From an uncultured Bacilli bacterium (GTDB taxonomy: Bacteria; Bacillota_I; Bacilli_A; RFN20; CAG-449), in the NCBI GenBank assembly GCA_947626895.1, contig CANQTY010000001.1, positions 2,477 through 66,476 on the forward strand: a stretch of 64,000 bases of DNA, given 5' to 3'. Positions 9,701 through 20,139 of this stretch are shown in pieces (within the stretch, counting starts at the first letter, position 1; the number at the start of each line of letters is the position of its first letter). The notes under the pieces were generated by a model. It was not told the origin of the DNA and did not search any database. It worked only from the letters and a program-made list of their open reading frames with translations. The position numbers were made by a program, and so were the translations under genes.

Positions 9701-9794
9701 TGTAATATTAATTTCTGGAACATTAAAACAAGATGATAAAGGAACATCCTTTATCGCTAGTGAAATCATTAAAATGGAGGTAAAAGATGAATAG
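6783..9794 (+). CDS. dnaE: DNA polymerase III alpha subunit (DnaE-type, short form)
   Basis: N-terminal PHP domain; polymerase core motif GYLDYFLIV..YAK..GILVGPGRGSASGSLVSYALSITEADPL...FERFLNPERISMPDIDVDF; GAGGTG RBS; 8-nt overlap with polA. Confidence 0.9.
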   Translation: MAYFPLNVQTGYTFLSSALKIPSYVKKGKELGFTHLGISDINPYAYKEFETFSKKENIIPIFGIRISFYFHNQLRNIHLYIESEEGYLSLCHITSLIDEDIYLGDFSNVKGLICIVPMLTSNFFFNEEDEKERMRMLMELKSFFSSFYIGTECYTKEDIEKLNEIYALCDQYDFKTVAFSKTLCLKKEDGLTLDILEAIKNDTKLSDYEEKSTPYFLLSETSCRKIYREKDFLFFIEHDFSSFTLQKKRGELYKIQNIDDKKEKIYELAKTFLSKNNKWNELYEKRLNYELDVISKMGYLDYFLIVSDYVNYAKNHGILVGPGRGSASGSLVSYALSITEADPLKYDLLFERFLNPERISMPDIDVDFIDYHREDIIAYISSHYGEDKVSKIIAFQTFGPKQAIQDIGRVFSFNPSDIKLLSNSIDSQQKTFLDAYKFSPSFKELVQDEHYKLIASLARRIEGLPRQKGLHASGIIINNKPLKDVLPMFGKNSPAPYEGNYLEELGFLKMDILGIRNLTIIENVLNRINQKDLKLENIPLDDKKTLEILNNGLTKGIFQLEGDGITDSLKEIGVDSFNDIIAINALYRPGPMEHISHYAKRKKHLEKIPYIDSRLEPILKETYGIIVYQEQIMRIVQDVASFSLGKADILRRAISKKSLDLLVSLKKDFIDGAKANGLNEKNANKIYDYILEFANYGFNKSHSVSYALFSYRMAYLKSHFPKEFFSALLDMQKSSPNYSQYTNELRYFSLEILPPDINLSEQNFKVEEKGIRIPLSAIKGFSSNLEKALLEERKNGSFTSLSDLFLRSKEMGFSEQNYLALVNAGALDIFKLNRQTLRKAVKTYMLFANNIEGIKDLTPEERKLMEPKIISLKEDNKLKYQLEFETLGILLSGSLFSEYEKYFAHLEIHNIAYAYKNKDQLMTIPAVISSVRIIKTRNKEDMEILQVYDEKDQVKVVIFPKIYKTIPYIVKGDVILISGTLKQDDKGTSFIASEIIKMEVKDE

Positions 9795-12401: not shown

Positions 12402-13799
12402 ATGCCTGAATTACCAGAAGTTGAAACCGTAAGAAGAATTTTAAATACTTGTGTACAAAATAAAAGAATACAGGATGTTTTAATTTACGATGATCATATG
12501 GCAAAAAATTCTAAATATCCTTTAAACGTTTTAAAAGGTGAAAAAATACATGTCGTTGACCGCAAGGGAAAATATTTAATTTTTCGTTTAGATCACTATC
12601 TTTTGATTTCACATCTACGGATGGAAGGAAAATATTATTATCACGAAAAAAGAGTTGAAAATGCACCCCATACCCGCATTATCTTCTGTTTTGATGATGG
12701 TACATATCTATATTATGATGACTCTAGACGATTTGGTACGATGGATGTTTATTTAATTGATGAAGAAAATAATATTCCTTCTATATCCTCTTTAGGAAAA
12801 GAACCATTTCAGTTAACTAAAGAAGAACTATATAACGATTTTAAGAGTCATCATTTAGAAATCAAATCAATGTTATTATGTCAAAATATCATCGCAGGAA
12901 TAGGAAATATTTATGCTGATGAAATTCTCTTTGAAAGTAAAATATCCCCTTTTAAAATGTGTGATACTTTAACTTTAAATGAAGTAGATGTTATTCTAGA
13001 AAATGCCAAAAAAATCTTATTAAAAGCCATTGATTTAGGTGGTTCAACCATTAGAAGTTATCATCCTTCTGAAGGAATCGATGGACTATTCCAAGAAGAA
13101 TTAAAAGCTTATGGAAAAGAAAATAAACCATGCATTCATTGTAATACTTTAATGAGATGCCACATGTTACACGGAAGAAGTGTTACTTATTGTCCGACGT
13201 GCCAAAATGTAGCAAAAGTTGTTGCTATTTATGGAAAAATAGCATCAGGTAAATCAACCGTCTTAAATTATTTATCATCACTAGGCTATAAAACCTTTTC
13301 CGCGGATAAGGAAGTGAATGACTTATATAAAAAAGATTTTCATTTAAAAGCATTTTGTATCCATCTTTTTGGTGAAGCTTGTCTAACACGATTTGGCACA
13401 ATTAACAAAAACGTTATCAAAAAACTTATTGTTAATGATGAAAATAAAAAAATTGAATTAGAAAATTATATTCATCCATTAGTGAAAAAAAGACTGATTT
13501 CCTTTATTAAGAATAATATCTATGAAAAAGTGATATTTATTGAAATACCTTTATTATTCGAAGCTAAATGGGATGATTTAGCGGATGAAATCCTAGGAAT
13601 TGATATTCCCTTAGATTTACAAATCACCCATTTAAAAAAACGTAAATCTAAAAATATTTCAAGGGATTTAGCCCTTAATTCATCTTTAAAATTTAATAAG
13701 AATTTAGCAAAATGTAATGATATTATCGTAAATGATGGTTCATTAGATGAATTATATCAAAAAGTCGATACATATCTTAATATGATTCTACGTAAGTAG
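12402..13799 (+). CDS. mutM: fusion protein: formamidopyrimidine-DNA glycosylase (Fpg/MutM) N-terminal + dephospho-CoA kinase (CoaE) C-terminal
   Basis: MPELPEVETVRR Fpg N-terminus with catalytic Pro2/Glu3; H2TH; zinc finger CIHC...CPTCQ at about aa 245-270; four residues later a CoaE P-loop VVAIYGKIASGKSTV runs to aa 465 with no stop between. Confidence 0.8.
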   Translation: MPELPEVETVRRILNTCVQNKRIQDVLIYDDHMAKNSKYPLNVLKGEKIHVVDRKGKYLIFRLDHYLLISHLRMEGKYYYHEKRVENAPHTRIIFCFDDGTYLYYDDSRRFGTMDVYLIDEENNIPSISSLGKEPFQLTKEELYNDFKSHHLEIKSMLLCQNIIAGIGNIYADEILFESKISPFKMCDTLTLNEVDVILENAKKILLKAIDLGGSTIRSYHPSEGIDGLFQEELKAYGKENKPCIHCNTLMRCHMLHGRSVTYCPTCQNVAKVVAIYGKIASGKSTVLNYLSSLGYKTFSADKEVNDLYKKDFHLKAFCIHLFGEACLTRFGTINKNVIKKLIVNDENKKIELENYIHPLVKKRLISFIKNNIYEKVIFIEIPLLFEAKWDDLADEILGIDIPLDLQITHLKKRKSKNISRDLALNSSLKFNKNLAKCNDIIVNDGSLDELYQKVDTYLNMILRK

Positions 13800-14094
13800 G
13801 TAAAAAGATAAAAAACGTATAGGAAATTTCTTTTGTTGAAAGAAAAACAAATCGTCTAATATCTTTTTTTAAAGTACATATCAAATGATTTTCTCCTTCT
13901 TTTAAATCATAAGAGATTTTTTCTTTTAATAATTCCTGCTTTAAAAAAGATGAAAATTCATTACTCTTATCATAGGATTCACGAATTTCATCCTCAAAAC
14001 GATAAAAAGACTTCAAAGTCATATCTTCATTTTGCACATCATGAAGAAATAAAAAATACGTTATAAATACGATGAAAAGAAGAATCCGTTTCAT
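13777..14094 (-). CDS. small secreted/membrane-anchored hypothetical protein
   Basis: probable start at internal Met (MKRILLFIVFITYFLF signal peptide), giving a 4-nt coupling overlap with the upstream gene; the ORF-track start at 14139 is less likely. Confidence 0.4.
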   Translation of the reverse strand: MKRILLFIVFITYFLFLHDVQNEDMTLKSFYRFEDEIRESYDKSNEFSSFLKQELLKEKISYDLKEGENHLICTLKKDIRRFVFLSTKEISYTFFIFLPTYVESY

Positions 14095-15110
14095 AAAAAA
14101 TACACCCCATATAGATAAAATAAGAAGAAAGCGACACAAAGTATAAAAGGGTAAAATGAAATAGATTCTTCCTTTCTAAGGATTGGTTGATATTCATAAG
14201 TTATTCTTGTGTCTTTTAAAGCACTTGAAATCATTAATATTTTTTCTTTGTCTTCTTCATCATAAGATGAAAATGCTTCTTGAAGAGCTTTTCCTGATCC
14301 TTCAATAAAAAGTAACTTTCTTTCTAACATTGTTTCACCAAAGTTTTTTAGTAATTTACACGCATTTTCAAATGCTTCATAAGGTTTTAAAACCTGTCCG
14401 TAGCAGGTGAAATATAAAAAGAATTGATTCATTTTCTTATCTTCTTTTTTCTTTGTTAGATATAAAATAACAAGAAAACCACTAGTTAAAGCAAAACTGA
14501 AATATAGAACGCCAATAAACGATTGAAATATTTCTAAAACATAAGAATTTTGTGCCATTAGTAATAAAAAGGCATATTGCACAATATAAATTAGATGGAT
14601 GAATTGCAAATTTTTTTCATACGTTTCTTCACTTTCTATCGGAAATAAATAATCCACAACTTTTTTTAATGCATTAAAACTTTTCGCATTTTGTAAAGCA
14701 AATAATAAGATTTCAAATGAATCAAATGGATAAAGCGTTCTTAATCTTGCCATTACTTCTTCAAGAGTGTCAGCTTTTGCCTTTGGTTCTGCAGCAATAA
14801 AGGCATCACGTAATGTTTCACTTTTCCAATAAAAAAGCATTTGATGAGCTAATAATTTTAATCTAATTTGTTTTTGAATATCTTTAATCTTAGGAAGACA
14901 ATAAAAATAAAATAATAAGCTTTCCATCAATAGATATAAAATTGTTAAAATCAAAGAAATAATCATTGATTTTGAAAGAGTCTCTATAAAAAAGAAAAGT
15001 AAAATTCCCTTTATAATTATCTCTATAATGTATGTAAAGTACCCCTCAGGTGGATTCTTTCGTTTAGGTTTCTTCTGGTGTAAGAAACGGAAATGAAAAC
15101 TTCTTGGCAT
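14091..15110 (-). CDS. polytopic integral membrane protein, unknown function
   Basis: several hydrophobic spans (about 7 predicted TM segments); start ambiguous, possibly an internal Met; no family recognised. Confidence 0.4.
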   Translation of the reverse strand: MPRSFHFRFLHQKKPKRKNPPEGYFTYIIEIIIKGILLFFFIETLSKSMIISLILTILYLLMESLLFYFYCLPKIKDIQKQIRLKLLAHQMLFYWKSETLRDAFIAAEPKAKADTLEEVMARLRTLYPFDSFEILLFALQNAKSFNALKKVVDYLFPIESEETYEKNLQFIHLIYIVQYAFLLLMAQNSYVLEIFQSFIGVLYFSFALTSGFLVILYLTKKKEDKKMNQFFLYFTCYGQVLKPYEAFENACKLLKNFGETMLERKLLFIEGSGKALQEAFSSYDEEDKEKILMISSALKDTRITYEYQPILRKEESISFYPFILCVAFFLFYLYGVYFL

Positions 15111-15388
15111 AATTCCTCCTTTATTTGTTCATAATGAATATTCACTTTTAATGAATCCAAAGCATATAGATTTTTGATTTCATGTAAGTAGTATGTAAGA
15201 TTATTTTCAAAGACATCTTGAACAAAATTGTAGTCCTCTTCTTTAAAGACGCTTTGATTTAATGAATATTCGAAAACTTCCGAAATTTCCTTTTTTAAAA
15301 ACTCTTTATCTATATATGAAGTTGTTACTTCAGAAAATGCCGAACAAAATAGCATAAAACAAATGCTAAATAGATAATATTTTTTCAT
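15023..15388 (-). CDS. small secreted hypothetical protein
   Basis: signal peptide MKKYYLFSICFMLFCSAFS; 121 aa. Confidence 0.45.
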   Translation of the reverse strand: MKKYYLFSICFMLFCSAFSEVTTSYIDKEFLKKEISEVFEYSLNQSVFKEEDYNFVQDVFENNLTYYLHEIKNLYALDSLKVNIHYEQIKEELCQEVFISVSYTRRNLNERIHLRGTLHTL

Positions 15389-16205
15389 ATGTTTCTATTT
15401 CCTTTTCACTGATTTCAATTTGATAAGAAGAGGAAAAATCTTCATTGATTTTAATGGTCTTAGGAAAATGAAATATATTTTTTCCTATTCCAATATTCAC
15501 TTCATAATTAAGTTCACCTTGGAAATATTTTCTTGGAAGAAATATATCCTTTTCATCTCCTTTTCCATCATAAATTAGTTCCCCATTTAATGAATAAGAA
15601 TATCCCGTTTCTAAAGAAAAAGTATAAATGTTCTCATTTTGATAACTATCTAAATGAAATAAGTATCCTTCTTCATAGGGTAAATGAGGAAAAATAAGTT
15701 TTGACGTATAAATTTTTAAATCACAATAGACTATATCTTTCCCTTGATAAAGAATTGTTCCAAATAAATCACGTGGGAACTTAAGTAAAGATAAATATTC
15801 CTCGATATTTGGAAAAATAAATTCAACATGATCTAAGCAACGATTCACACAATAACAATTACTCATTAAAGAAGAAACATAATATCCTAAATCGTATTCA
15901 TCCTCAATATCATAAAGATGAGTTCTATTCCTTGTATTGGTAATCTTTACTTTCGTATAAGCTAGCTCTGATTTAATGGTTATATAAAAATCATTTGTTA
16001 AATCCTCTAAAGGAATCTTTAAAATAGAAGAATCTGTATCTAATGATTCTTGGTTTAATTCATAACCAATTATTTTACCAACATTAGATGTTACATTTAG
16101 TAACAAAGAGGAGTCTTTGATTTCACTAGCTTCAACAATATAATCAGAAGATGGAATAGATAATAAGGACAATATGCATAAGCTTACCATTATTCCATTA
16201 AACAT
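15366..16205 (-). CDS. secreted hypothetical protein
   Basis: N-terminal signal peptide MVSLCILSLLSIPSS; Tyr/Asn/Glu-rich; no recognisable family. Confidence 0.45.
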   Translation of the reverse strand: MFNGIMVSLCILSLLSIPSSDYIVEASEIKDSSLLLNVTSNVGKIIGYELNQESLDTDSSILKIPLEDLTNDFYITIKSELAYTKVKITNTRNRTHLYDIEDEYDLGYYVSSLMSNCYCVNRCLDHVEFIFPNIEEYLSLLKFPRDLFGTILYQGKDIVYCDLKIYTSKLIFPHLPYEEGYLFHLDSYQNENIYTFSLETGYSYSLNGELIYDGKGDEKDIFLPRKYFQGELNYEVNIGIGKNIFHFPKTIKINEDFSSSYQIEISEKEIETYEKILSI

Positions 16206-16549
16206 AGAAATTCCTCGATGGCTTTTTTCCTAAGACGATAGAATGTCGAACGCGTGTAATAACGCATCCACCAAAACTTTTCAACCTGGAAGAAAAATTC
16301 TTTCCATAGTAACATTGCTTTTCTTCTTTCTAAACATGATAGACTAAAATTAACTCTAGCTAAATATTTAGCGTTTTCATTGTTACTTTGCTGCGATTTC
16401 AGATATAAATGCCTGTTTTCATACTTAGGATCAAAAAGCAATGGTTGCTCTCCATTATTACAATAAGGATCATTCATACAAATAGCTAAGCACCTTTTGT
16501 AGCGGACCACATAAGCCCTAATTTTATTTTCTCTATCTTTATTCGTCAT
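16190..16549 (-). CDS. small sigma-70 region-4-like HTH regulator (ArpU/RinA/DUF1492-like phage-type activator)
   Basis: C-terminal TRSTFYRLRKKAIEEF matches the sigma-70 region 4.2 recognition helix; real start at internal Met MTNKDRENK (ATG 16547-16549) with GGAGGT RBS 8 nt upstream; the 5' part of the 150-aa ORF is translated promoter DNA. Confidence 0.55.
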   Translation of the reverse strand: MTNKDRENKIRAYVVRYKRCLAICMNDPYCNNGEQPLLFDPKYENRHLYLKSQQSNNENAKYLARVNFSLSCLERRKAMLLWKEFFFQVEKFWWMRYYTRSTFYRLRKKAIEEFLCLME

Positions 16550-16769
16550 AGACAAATACCTCCATGAAATCAAAAAAACATATTTTTTGTAAAAGGTAAA
16601 GAGTTTTTTAAAAAAGCGTAAAAATGTTACTTTTTGTCTCATTTTCGTCCCATTTTGGTGTCATTTTGTTGCACCAGAATCTCATTTTTCATTTTTTTGC
16701 TCTTGTCATCAAATTTCTTGATTTTGTATAAGATAAAAATTATACTTACTTTAATCTTAAAAGGAGTCT

Positions 16770-17750
16770 ATGATGAAGAAGTTTGTTGCTTTATTAATTC
16801 CATTTTTATTCTTAGGAGTCAGCTGTGAAAAAGAAAATAATCATAAAATTATTTCTTATTTCCATGAAGATTTAACTTCTCTAATTTATGTTAATCAAAA
16901 TGAAGTAAAGACTTTAGCTAGTAATCAAGAAGATTTTATTTTATTTGTCTTTTCCGATTGTGGTTGCGGAGGCCATGGCGATAGTGTTTTTTCAACTTTA
17001 AAAACTTATATTAGTGAAACTCATCGTTTAATATACGCTATTGGGGATACGGATTATAAAAAACTTGATGTTACATTAAGTGACACTTTTCCTTTATATC
17101 CGACAAATCAAATGGATGAAATCAATAAAATTCCTGCTTTTTATTTTTATCATGGTGGAAAATTAACTTATGAACGTTATTATGAAGAAAGTTTGCTTAC
17201 AGTAAAAGGAATAACCTCGTTGATGAATGATTATATGACCCCATATGGCATGAATATTATTAATGATATTGTTCCTTATACTTTTAAAGGATATGATTTT
17301 TTTAAATTTAACGAAGAAACTACAACAAAATTAGATCAAAAAATTCAAGGAAATAACACAATTTACTATTCTTGGAAACAATGTGGAGATTGTCGTTCTT
17401 TGAAAGGAATTTTAAGAGATTATTATCTAGATCATAATACTTTATTATATATGTATGAAGTAGATTACTTTAGAAATAGTGACAATAAAGAAACATTATG
17501 GGATAATGAAGAAGGATTCCCCTATCAATATCAATTTGCTAACTATCGAGGAGGGAAAGTACCAAGTCTAGTCACTTATGAAAATGGTTTAAAAAAAGAT
17601 ATGATTGTTTATCATAATGATGTCGTTAATGATGGAACAATTGAAACATCTTTCTTTAATGAACTTGTTGGACAAAAATTAAGTGCAGAAGAACAAGAAA
17701 ACTATCATAAGGAAAAAGTACTAGAATACTTATCATCATTAAAGGAGTAA
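16770..17750 (+). CDS. lipoprotein with thioredoxin-like CxxC motif(s)
   Basis: lipobox LFLGVSC|E; SWKQCGDCRSL (Trx-like CxxC) and an earlier FSDCGCGGHG motif; possible tandem Trx-like domains. Confidence 0.45.
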   Translation: MMKKFVALLIPFLFLGVSCEKENNHKIISYFHEDLTSLIYVNQNEVKTLASNQEDFILFVFSDCGCGGHGDSVFSTLKTYISETHRLIYAIGDTDYKKLDVTLSDTFPLYPTNQMDEINKIPAFYFYHGGKLTYERYYEESLLTVKGITSLMNDYMTPYGMNIINDIVPYTFKGYDFFKFNEETTTKLDQKIQGNNTIYYSWKQCGDCRSLKGILRDYYLDHNTLLYMYEVDYFRNSDNKETLWDNEEGFPYQYQFANYRGGKVPSLVTYENGLKKDMIVYHNDVVNDGTIETSFFNELVGQKLSAEEQENYHKEKVLEYLSSLKE

Positions 17751-17752
17751 CA

Positions 17753-18538
17753 ATGAAAAAAGAAGATTTAGATTCTCAATATGGATTATATAAAACCATC
17801 GATTTATTGAAAGACACTCGAGTTAATGTCTTTTGTAAAGCAGGTGGAGGTTTTATCTTTTTTACCTTATTTGTCATTGGCTTTTTTATTGATAATATGA
17901 ATCTTTTATTCCCATTTTCTCAAGGATATTTATTATTTGTACAATATTTATCCTTAATTGTTGGCTTTATTTTATACGCTTTTTTGCATGAACTTATTCA
18001 TTTTTTAATGGCAAGAATTATGAAAATTCATGCTAAAATGAAACCCGCGGGATTATTTCCTTATTGCACCATTGAAGAAGAACTTTTAAGTAAGAAACAA
18101 TATATACTTTTTGCTTTAATGCCTTTTATTTCATTAACCACTTTATTAATTCCTAGTGTGATTTTAGTAAAAATATTTGCTCCTAATTGGTTTTGGTTAC
18201 CTTATATTCTTTTGATGCAAGATGCAGCGACATCCGTCGGTGATTTTGTCGCTATCTTTTATATTAAACGTTACAAAAAATGTTATATAGAAGATAATGA
18301 TGCTCAACTATTAATCTATGTAAAAATGGATGAATTTAAAGAATATCATGATAGTGAAAAAGCCTATTATGAAAAGAAAATGTTAAAGAAAATTAAAAAG
18401 AAAAAAAGAAAAGAACAGCTTAAAAATGCTCCTCTAATGGGTAAAAAGAAATATGAAGAAAGCTTAAAAGAAAAAGGAACTCCTTTAGAGGATACTGACG
18501 CTCAAGATATCGATGATCTTTCTAAATTAGATATGTAA
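17753..18538 (+). CDS. membrane protein with HExxH motif (DUF3267-like putative zincin peptidase), Lys-rich C-terminal tail
   Basis: LHELIHFLMARIM (HExxH) embedded between TM segments; C-terminal KKIKKKKRKEQLK low-complexity. Confidence 0.45.
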   Translation: MKKEDLDSQYGLYKTIDLLKDTRVNVFCKAGGGFIFFTLFVIGFFIDNMNLLFPFSQGYLLFVQYLSLIVGFILYAFLHELIHFLMARIMKIHAKMKPAGLFPYCTIEEELLSKKQYILFALMPFISLTTLLIPSVILVKIFAPNWFWLPYILLMQDAATSVGDFVAIFYIKRYKKCYIEDNDAQLLIYVKMDEFKEYHDSEKAYYEKKMLKKIKKKKRKEQLKNAPLMGKKKYEESLKEKGTPLEDTDAQDIDDLSKLDM

Positions 18539-19128: not shown

Positions 19129-20139
19129 CTAATTAAATAAATCTTCTTCATCATTAGAATAATAATTAGAGATGATATGATCAAAATATTCATAGATGGA
19201 TTTTAGTAAGAGATTATTTACATAATATTCCTTATGAAGGGGAATCCTTTTGTAAAATAAATAGTTGATGCGATTATTGACGCAGCGCTTTACACCTTTA
19301 TTTTTAACTAAAATATTAAATAAATATAAAGTGCTAGTGATTTGTCTTATCGCCGAATTTGCTAGCTTATGTTGTCTTGTTTCTTTAGAAACACCACATT
19401 CAATTAAAAAAGTATTAATTAAAAAATTTGGTGTCCTTTTCACATCTTTCTTATGAAGAATAGATAAGATACAAACACTATGTGCTAAAGCATTTCTAAG
19501 CTTATGGACATCCATCAAGATTGGAATATATTTATGATCTTCTAGATGATAATAAGTGGTAAGAAAATCAAAAAAGTTAATCAGTTCTCCAAAAGATAGA
19601 ATCTTTAAAAATTTACCCAAAGGAAAATTTGTGATTTTTCTTCCACTATCTAGGTTATATTTCAAAAATATATCTTCATAATATACATCATTTTTCTTAG
19701 ACATGATGGAATTATGAATTCTTTTAGGAAACCTAGAATCGTAATAATCTTGATCTAAGAATAAATTTACGATGTTTAATCCATCTTCACCCGGAATTTT
19801 TGACACGAGATTTTTTATTCTTAATTTAAGATTCTCTTCGATTTCGTTTGTCATTTTTTGAAGCAATTCCCTAACTAAAGAATCGACAAGGGATAAATCC
19901 TTTAAATAGGCAAAATCTACATCCATGAATTTTCCTTTAAATTCTCCATTTGGATAAAGTACAAAATTGTGACGATAAGAAACAACCGTATCATAATCTT
20001 TACTCGTCTTCAAAAAATATTCTGCTTCTTGCTCATTACAAAGCTCAAATTTAATATTTTTGCTTTTTAAATAATTAATCACTTCAAAAATATTCAATTC
20101 AGACTCTATAGTTGCAGTAGCAATATTTCCATTCATCAT
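19129..20139 (-). CDS. Abi_2-family (AbiD/AbiF-like) abortive infection protein
   Basis: 336 aa; LSFGELINFF and VHKLRNALAHSVCIL match the Abi_2 family hallmarks (sFG.l motif; R-N-x-x-A-H motif). Confidence 0.6.
   Translation of the reverse strand: MMNGNIATATIESELNIFEVINYLKSKNIKFELCNEQEAEYFLKTSKDYDTVVSYRHNFVLYPNGEFKGKFMDVDFAYLKDLSLVDSLVRELLQKMTNEIEENLKLRIKNLVSKIPGEDGLNIVNLFLDQDYYDSRFPKRIHNSIMSKKNDVYYEDIFLKYNLDSGRKITNFPLGKFLKILSFGELINFFDFLTTYYHLEDHKYIPILMDVHKLRNALAHSVCILSILHKKDVKRTPNFLINTFLIECGVSKETRQHKLANSAIRQITSTLYLFNILVKNKGVKRCVNNRINYLFYKRIPLHKEYYVNNLLLKSIYEYFDHIISNYYSNDEEDLFN

Follow-up and report, generated by a model that had tools for sequence, protein, structure and literature searches.

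A tightly coupled operon of uncultured gut Bacilli in which an MG284/MPN403-family regulator with a predicted sigma region-4 fold precedes four putative envelope proteins

Introduction

What is a small regulator doing at the head of a row of exported and membrane proteins that have no family of their own? The question is raised by five minus-strand genes, here called R, A, B, C and D from first to last, in a stretch of 64,000 nucleotides (nt) from an uncultured Bacilli bacterium (GenBank assembly GCA_947626895.1, contig CANQTY010000001.1, positions 2,477 to 66,476 of the forward strand; this whole stretch is "the window" in what follows). An earlier note, written from the letters of the window, had seen in R a sigma-70 region-4-like regulator of the phage-activator kind and in A–D a cargo of bacteriocin-like, surface or competition factors. 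The explanation that we tentatively favor, with somewhat less than even confidence, is that of an operon for a protein complex of the cell envelope, one that is inherited vertically, is specific to its lineage and is regulated by its own first gene.

Results

Family and Fold of the Regulator

The R protein, whose sequence includes TFYRLRKKAIEEF, matches the NCBIfam model NF045770 (the MG284/MPN403 family) over residues 62–115 with 66.4 bits and an E-value of 1.6e-18, well above the curated cut-off of 37.3 bits, and the same cut-off is passed by all 15 R relatives over a 57-residue C-terminal domain, with a best E-value of 6.3e-20. Judged by this profile R is a bona fide member of the family, so the statement that none of the five products has a recognizable family stands for A–D and falls for R. 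The relatives come from rabbit-gut and other metagenome assemblies labeled "uncultured Bacilli" or "uncultured Erysipelotrichaceae", and a search of the literature on the MG284/MPN403 family found no published function.

Structure models were made for R and C. The AlphaFold model of R, built from a 15-sequence alignment, has a mean predicted local distance difference test score (pLDDT) of 86 and a predicted template-modeling score (pTM) of 0.80, and its C-terminal half (approximately residues 58–118) shows a predicted sigma-70 region-4-like fold. The top structural matches are region 4 of extracytoplasmic function (ECF) sigma factors and span region 4 only, which supports the region-4 call of the earlier note. 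The approximately 57 residues ahead of this region are modeled as a long helix, a loop and a short helix. In a sigma factor, region 4 recognizes the −35 promoter element and region 2 provides core binding and −10 recognition. With so short a segment ahead of its region 4, and region 2 missing, R cannot be a complete sigma factor. The Pfam Sigma70_r4 and other sigma models gave zero matches in 15 R-family members, even at E-values up to 10, and the R profile found no match among the Protein Data Bank (PDB) sequences. On the strength of its model, R is a small cytoplasmic region-4-type protein for which DNA binding is predicted.

Architecture of the Operon

The five minus-strand open reading frames (ORFs) that had been claimed are all present (Table 1), and the tight packing described for them is borne out, as they form one tightly coupled operon in which successive genes overlap by 16 nt (R/A), 23 nt (A/B), 88 nt (B/C) and 4 nt (C/D), the start ATG of D being merged with the stop codon of C (ATGA). 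A plausible Shine-Dalgarno sequence is found at all five starts, with GGAGG preceding R and AAGGAGG standing 5 nt ahead of the ATG of C at 15110; the latter favors the 339-residue form of C over the 291-residue form given in some assemblies. There are zero intergenic gaps within the operon and an internal promoter-terminator pair has no space. A consensus scan found no terminator-like sites inside it, and neither Rfam elements nor repeats were found within it. Downstream, the terminator-like hairpin listed in Table 1 is a possible transcript end. The G+C content is approximately 28% across the whole window, and that of the operon is the same as that of its flanks.

Table 1. Features of the operon and its surroundings, in window coordinates.
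Feature	Positions	Strand	Details
R	16190-16549	minus	119 aa; ORF list
A	15366-16205	minus	279 aa; ORF list
B	15023-15388	minus	121 aa; ORF list
C	14091-15110	minus	339 aa; ORF list
D	13777-14094	minus	105 aa; ORF list
Terminator-like hairpin (possible transcript end)	13659-13678	minus	consensus scan; ~100 nt downstream of D, within the convergent coaE coding region
Intergenic region upstream of R	16550-16769	minus	220 bp; shared with the divergent gene at 16770
Three tandem 11-nt direct repeats CAAAATGACAC, CAAAATGGGAC, GAAAATGAGAC (candidate R binding site)	16636-16668	minus	shuffle test

Conservation and Evolution of the Cassette

All five genes, in unchanged order, are present in eight of eight divergent loci, always convergent with mutM-coaE/polA, and in every locus recovered the cassette sits beside mutM-coaE/polA/dnaE; the opposite flank differs in the most distant locus, L017. 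As judged by this synteny, the cassette is inherited vertically and is specific to one small lineage of uncultured gut Bacilli. Across the eight divergent loci the identity to the window is 37–55% for R, 45–55% for MutM-CoaE and 19–33% for A–D, which by this measure puts the divergence of R on a par with that of its housekeeping neighbor and has A–D diverging about twice as fast. When nine A orthologues are aligned they share 17–33% identity and one invariant residue, and an alignment of nine C orthologues likewise leaves one invariant residue.

Among near-identical strains the operon differs by 14 single-nucleotide polymorphisms, of which 9 are synonymous, 4 missense and 1 nonsense. From the predominance of synonymous changes together with the conserved gene order in the eight divergent relatives, it is clear that the five genes are real and not chance ORFs, and A–D are, by the same comparisons, fast-evolving yet under purifying selection. 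The nonsense change, Y261* in A, is found in the near-identical strain L009 (Logan DRR848763) at the equivalent of window position 15423, and removes the last 19 residues, a conserved YEK motif among them; the operon of that strain also carries 8 synonymous and 4 missense changes.

The overlap between the 3' end of B and the 5' end of C (15023–15110 on the minus strand of the window) is a further peculiarity of the cassette, as it runs out of frame for 67–88 nt in seven of the eight lineages (L001, L004 and L012–L015 among them), an unusual length for coupled genes. In L017, B and C do not overlap and C has no basic N-terminal tail.

Topology and Orphan Status of A–D

Hydropathy gives A a short N-terminal signal-like hydrophobic segment, so that A is predicted to be an exported protein of no known family. 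B and D each have one N-terminal hydrophobic anchor followed by an extracytoplasmic domain, of approximately 90 residues in B and 85 in D. The description of B as a secreted and of D as a signal-peptide protein needs revision in that, by hydropathy alone, both look membrane-anchored and not freely secreted. For C, hydropathy and positive-inside charge counts indicate five membrane helices with the N-terminus inside and two cytoplasmic domains rich in lysine and arginine, in the order of two transmembrane helices, a cytoplasmic helical domain (~74–166), two more transmembrane helices, a second cytoplasmic helical domain (~220–316) and a last transmembrane helix. Hydropathy and charge thus agree with the earlier assignment of C as a polytopic membrane protein and of A as a secreted protein. 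The AlphaFold model of C, made from a four-sequence alignment, reaches a pLDDT of 68 overall and 80–90 in the cytoplasmic domains. An internal repeat in C is weak, its halves aligning in hhalign with an E-value of 6.6e-4 and a probability of 27%.

None of the four proteins has a match in Pfam, NCBIfam, PHROGs or PADLOC; a scan for weak matches with every A–D orthologue gave nothing consistent, and comparing the profiles of all four with PDB sequences gave nothing. The PADLOC defense models likewise matched none of the operon proteins, save for a chance match of 13.7 bits for D. With C as the query, exhaustive HMMER scanning of 1.84 billion representatives brought up 3 proteins, to which a profile search contributed one more; a word-indexed search recovered C alone. 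A check for paralogy among A, B and D gave an alignment limited to the membrane anchors of B and D. By all of these searches A–D are true orphans.

The Control Region Upstream of R

Since the interior of the operon is free of gaps, the intergenic region upstream of R (Table 1) is the sole room for an operon promoter. A consensus scan of this region found no strong sigma-70 consensus, and no Rfam element was found in it. What it does contain is a set of three tandem direct repeats, 87–119 nt upstream of the R start codon and spaced by one helical turn, in which 8 of 11 columns are invariant, a degree of agreement reached by 0 of 200 shuffles. A position weight matrix made from the repeats gives them the three best scores in the whole 64-kb window, as it must by construction. 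We take the repeats as a candidate binding site for R. An ECF-like −35/−10 pattern, glimpsed by eye upstream of R, was discarded as inconsistent across loci. The third repeat carries an in-frame ATG at 16642 from which a potential R of 150 residues could be read; the extension is absent from the relatives.

Discussion

A Proposed Envelope Complex Under the Control of R

The kinds of evidence given above can be joined into one mechanism. R would bind within the 220-bp region upstream of its own gene, with the three repeats as the candidate site, and from there would switch on transcription of R-A-B-C-D as a single message, in the way that small phage activators of the sigma-4 type act on their targets. 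That R acts on its own operon is suggested by its region-4-type fold taken together with the coupling of the genes and their joint inheritance at one site. With R and A overlapping, a single mRNA would yield regulator and cargo in linked proportions. All four cargo proteins would then come together in the membrane, with C as a five-helix scaffold carrying its two helical domains on the cytoplasmic side, B and D as single-pass members with small outside domains, and A as a larger exported subunit. A–D are most likely a membrane complex with exposed parts, as far as their sequences can tell. The scarcity of invariant residues and the twofold faster divergence relative to R suggest a structural or surface-exposed complex and not an enzyme or transporter; the fast divergence fits surface exposure.

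Several observations weigh against this picture. The repeat motif is found upstream of R in only 4 of the 8 other loci, and it holds an ATG in an A-rich context of the kind common at gene starts. When the upstream regions are compared across loci, the best shared 12-mers are no better than those of shuffled sequences, and an alignment of these regions is uninformative. The case for a complex of A–D comes solely from the co-occurrence and overlap of their genes, and the model of C that enters into it is of moderate quality. Finally, R could have its targets elsewhere in the genome.

Alternative Explanations

This last point is shared by a different account of the cassette, as an envelope-to-gene signaling module in which the cytoplasmic helical domains of C would hold R inactive at the membrane, A, B and D would sense the outside, and the main targets of R may lie elsewhere in the genome. 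We consider this module unlikely when taken as a whole, and the anti-sigma-like holding of R by C at its center is a serious alternative. The cassette resembles operons of an ECF sigma factor and its membrane anti-sigma factor (e.g., SigW-RsiW) both in the ECF region 4 that R matches best and in the co-transcription of a sigma-like gene with membrane proteins. It departs from them in that R has its short segment of ~57 residues in place of region 2, and no Pfam sigma domain, while the gene directly after it, A, encodes no cytoplasmic N-terminal anti-sigma domain and C matches no anti-sigma structure or family. The reading of the earlier note, with R as a domesticated late activator of the ArpU/RinA/DUF1492 type that drives bacteriocin-like or competition factors, seems to us decidedly improbable. 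Phages of Gram-positive bacteria typically carry small activators of the sigma-4 type (PMC3753634), and R is like the members of the Ltr superfamily (RinA, ArpU, LtrA/Sigma70_r4 and DUF1492; PMC3753634, PMC3152322) in its size class (~100–140 residues), its region-4-like DNA-reading end, its place directly upstream of the genes presumably turned on and the three direct repeats upstream of it, direct repeats being what ArpU and RinA-type activators bind (PMC3753634). The ArpU model TIGR01637 gives a weak, near-full-length match (residues 15–114, E-values of 0.06–0.09) in 3 of 15 R relatives, the only ones below an E-value of 0.1, and R itself scores 13 bits (E-value of 0.087, residues 15–114) where the cut-off is 43.1. 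In an hhalign comparison of 17 R-family sequences with six sequences collected from phage records as RinA homologues (five full-length and a 29-residue fragment from a Hujiaoplasma phage locus), the recognition helix of R aligns with RinA, with a probability of 7.6% over 19 columns confined to this helix, which does not place R in the RinA family. What is left of the ArpU/RinA/DUF1492 label is a distant functional analogy. No relatives of R were found by tblastn against 50,697 phage records and 72,556 plasmids, nor by a scan of IMG/VR; the chromosomal position is fixed across all relatives, the flanks hold no phage genes, and the G+C content, as noted, does not set the operon apart. In the Ltr layout the regulator gene ends the phage early region, and a terminator, direct repeats and a promoter, in this order, separate it from terS and the late genes (PMC3753634). 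R differs from this arrangement in its sequence family, its chromosomal setting and its overlap with the cargo, which leaves no spacer of terminator and promoter, and the cargo consists of envelope proteins where the Ltr regulators have terminase, capsid or lysis genes. The 16-nt overlap and the lack of phage genes nearby are at odds with a late-activation module of the Ltr type. Nor does anything in the operon resemble a bacteriocin or its precursor, an immunity protein or family, or a transporter such as an ABC exporter. The recent domestication of a phage activator is largely refuted by these results.

The family membership of R leads in another direction, to Mycoplasma genitalium, where the family member MG_284 likewise adjoins, by locus number, two genes for uncharacterized proteins, MG_285 and MG_286 (MG_RS01705 and MG_RS01710). 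Under the factor sigma-20, MG_285 and MG_286 are induced 16–18-fold, as members of a recombination and gene-transfer regulon in which recA and ruvAB are induced as well; a start site for sigma-20 has been mapped ahead of MG_285, and membrane proteins of the regulon have been proposed to provide the contact between cells that DNase-resistant gene transfer requires (PMC6105099). The cassette could then be the counterpart of MG_284-MG_285-MG_286 in a walled relative, with membrane proteins that act in the program of cell contact or DNA exchange turned on by sigma-20 in mycoplasmas, and A–D do diverge fast enough to be unrecognizable at such a phylogenetic distance. We nonetheless regard this counterpart as improbable, since the NCBIfam scan of A–D shows no mycoplasma family, the sigma-20-type promoter (TTGTCA-N17-20-ATTWAT) has zero matches in the window, and the organism has a cell wall, as its Mur ligases indicate, which makes transfer of the membrane-fusion type unlikely. 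R further differs from its M. genitalium relative in being found in walled, uncultured gut Bacilli at the head of a five-gene operon. We give an equally low probability to the broader proposal that the cassette and MG_284-MG_285-MG_286 are one ancient module of the Mollicutes/Erysipelotrichia lineage, in which a regulator of the sigma-4 type would be paired with a rapidly diverging membrane apparatus for contact between cells or DNA exchange; the connection to MG_285 and MG_286 is best treated as a lead. More improbable still is a very divergent type IV filament module (Com, Tad or like the type II secretion system), with C as a GspF/PilC/TadB platform and B, D and A as pseudopilin-like partners. 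C recalls GspF in its cytoplasmic helical domains alternating with membrane hairpins, its last, C-terminal helix and its weak duplication, and B and D, small and with one N-terminal hydrophobic helix, are like minor pilins. A Foldseek search with the model of C as one chain, on the other hand, returned nothing below an E-value of 2, the T2SSF model touches no C orthologue, and the profile of C against Escherichia coli GspF and HofC gives a probability of 0.04%, so that neither sequence, profile nor fold supports this identity for C. In addition, a prepilin motif is missing from both B and D, and the partner genes of such systems (ATPase, pilin and peptidase) are not found nearby.

Significance for the MG284/MPN403 Family

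Even a bacterial genome that ranks among the smallest known has kept the MG284/MPN403 family. What is new for it is a predicted sigma region-4 fold, and with this a likely activity in binding promoter DNA, as well as its setting in walled relatives, where it heads an operon of envelope proteins. Fast evolution combined with purifying selection would point to A–D as a surface or membrane structure peculiar to this lineage of uncultured gut Bacilli. Should the link to MG_285 and MG_286 be true, the membrane component of the mycoplasma gene-transfer regulon, so far without explanation, would become testable, and if the two gene sets are one ancient module, a function could be given to genes that are unexplained even in a near-minimal genome. 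If the link is false, the cassette is an ordinary lineage-specific regulated envelope operon.

Neighboring Genes

The operon is surrounded by ordinary genes of the chromosome. On one flank lie dnaE, polA and a fused mutM-coaE gene that converges on D. The fusion of mutM (Fpg) with coaE (dephospho-CoA kinase) is a 465-residue ORF at 12402–13799 on the plus strand with the domains Fapy_DNA_glyco, H2TH and CoaE, it is present in every related locus, and its 3' end overlaps that of D convergently by 23 nt (13777–13799). It follows directly on dnaE (1003 residues) and polA (868 residues), which overlap by 8 nt (9787–9794), and the whole forms a compact dnaE-polA-mutM-coaE row for replication and repair that is kept in relatives.

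The other flank begins with a divergent pair of genes at 16770–18538 on the plus strand, which stands beside the operon in most relatives and is absent there in L017. The first of the pair encodes a lipoprotein-like product of 326 residues with an LGVSC lipobox, whose CGCGG and CGDC motifs suggest a thioredoxin-like protein and which has a faint PedC-like match in L013; the second encodes a DUF3267 putative zincin peptidase. Beyond them come an abortive-infection gene of the AbiD/Abi_2 type (19129–20139, minus strand) and genes for hexuronate metabolism. The window shares the AbiD gene with the identical strain L007, and relatives carry other genes at its position, which gives the interval between the DUF3267 gene and uxaC the look of a small variable defense islet.

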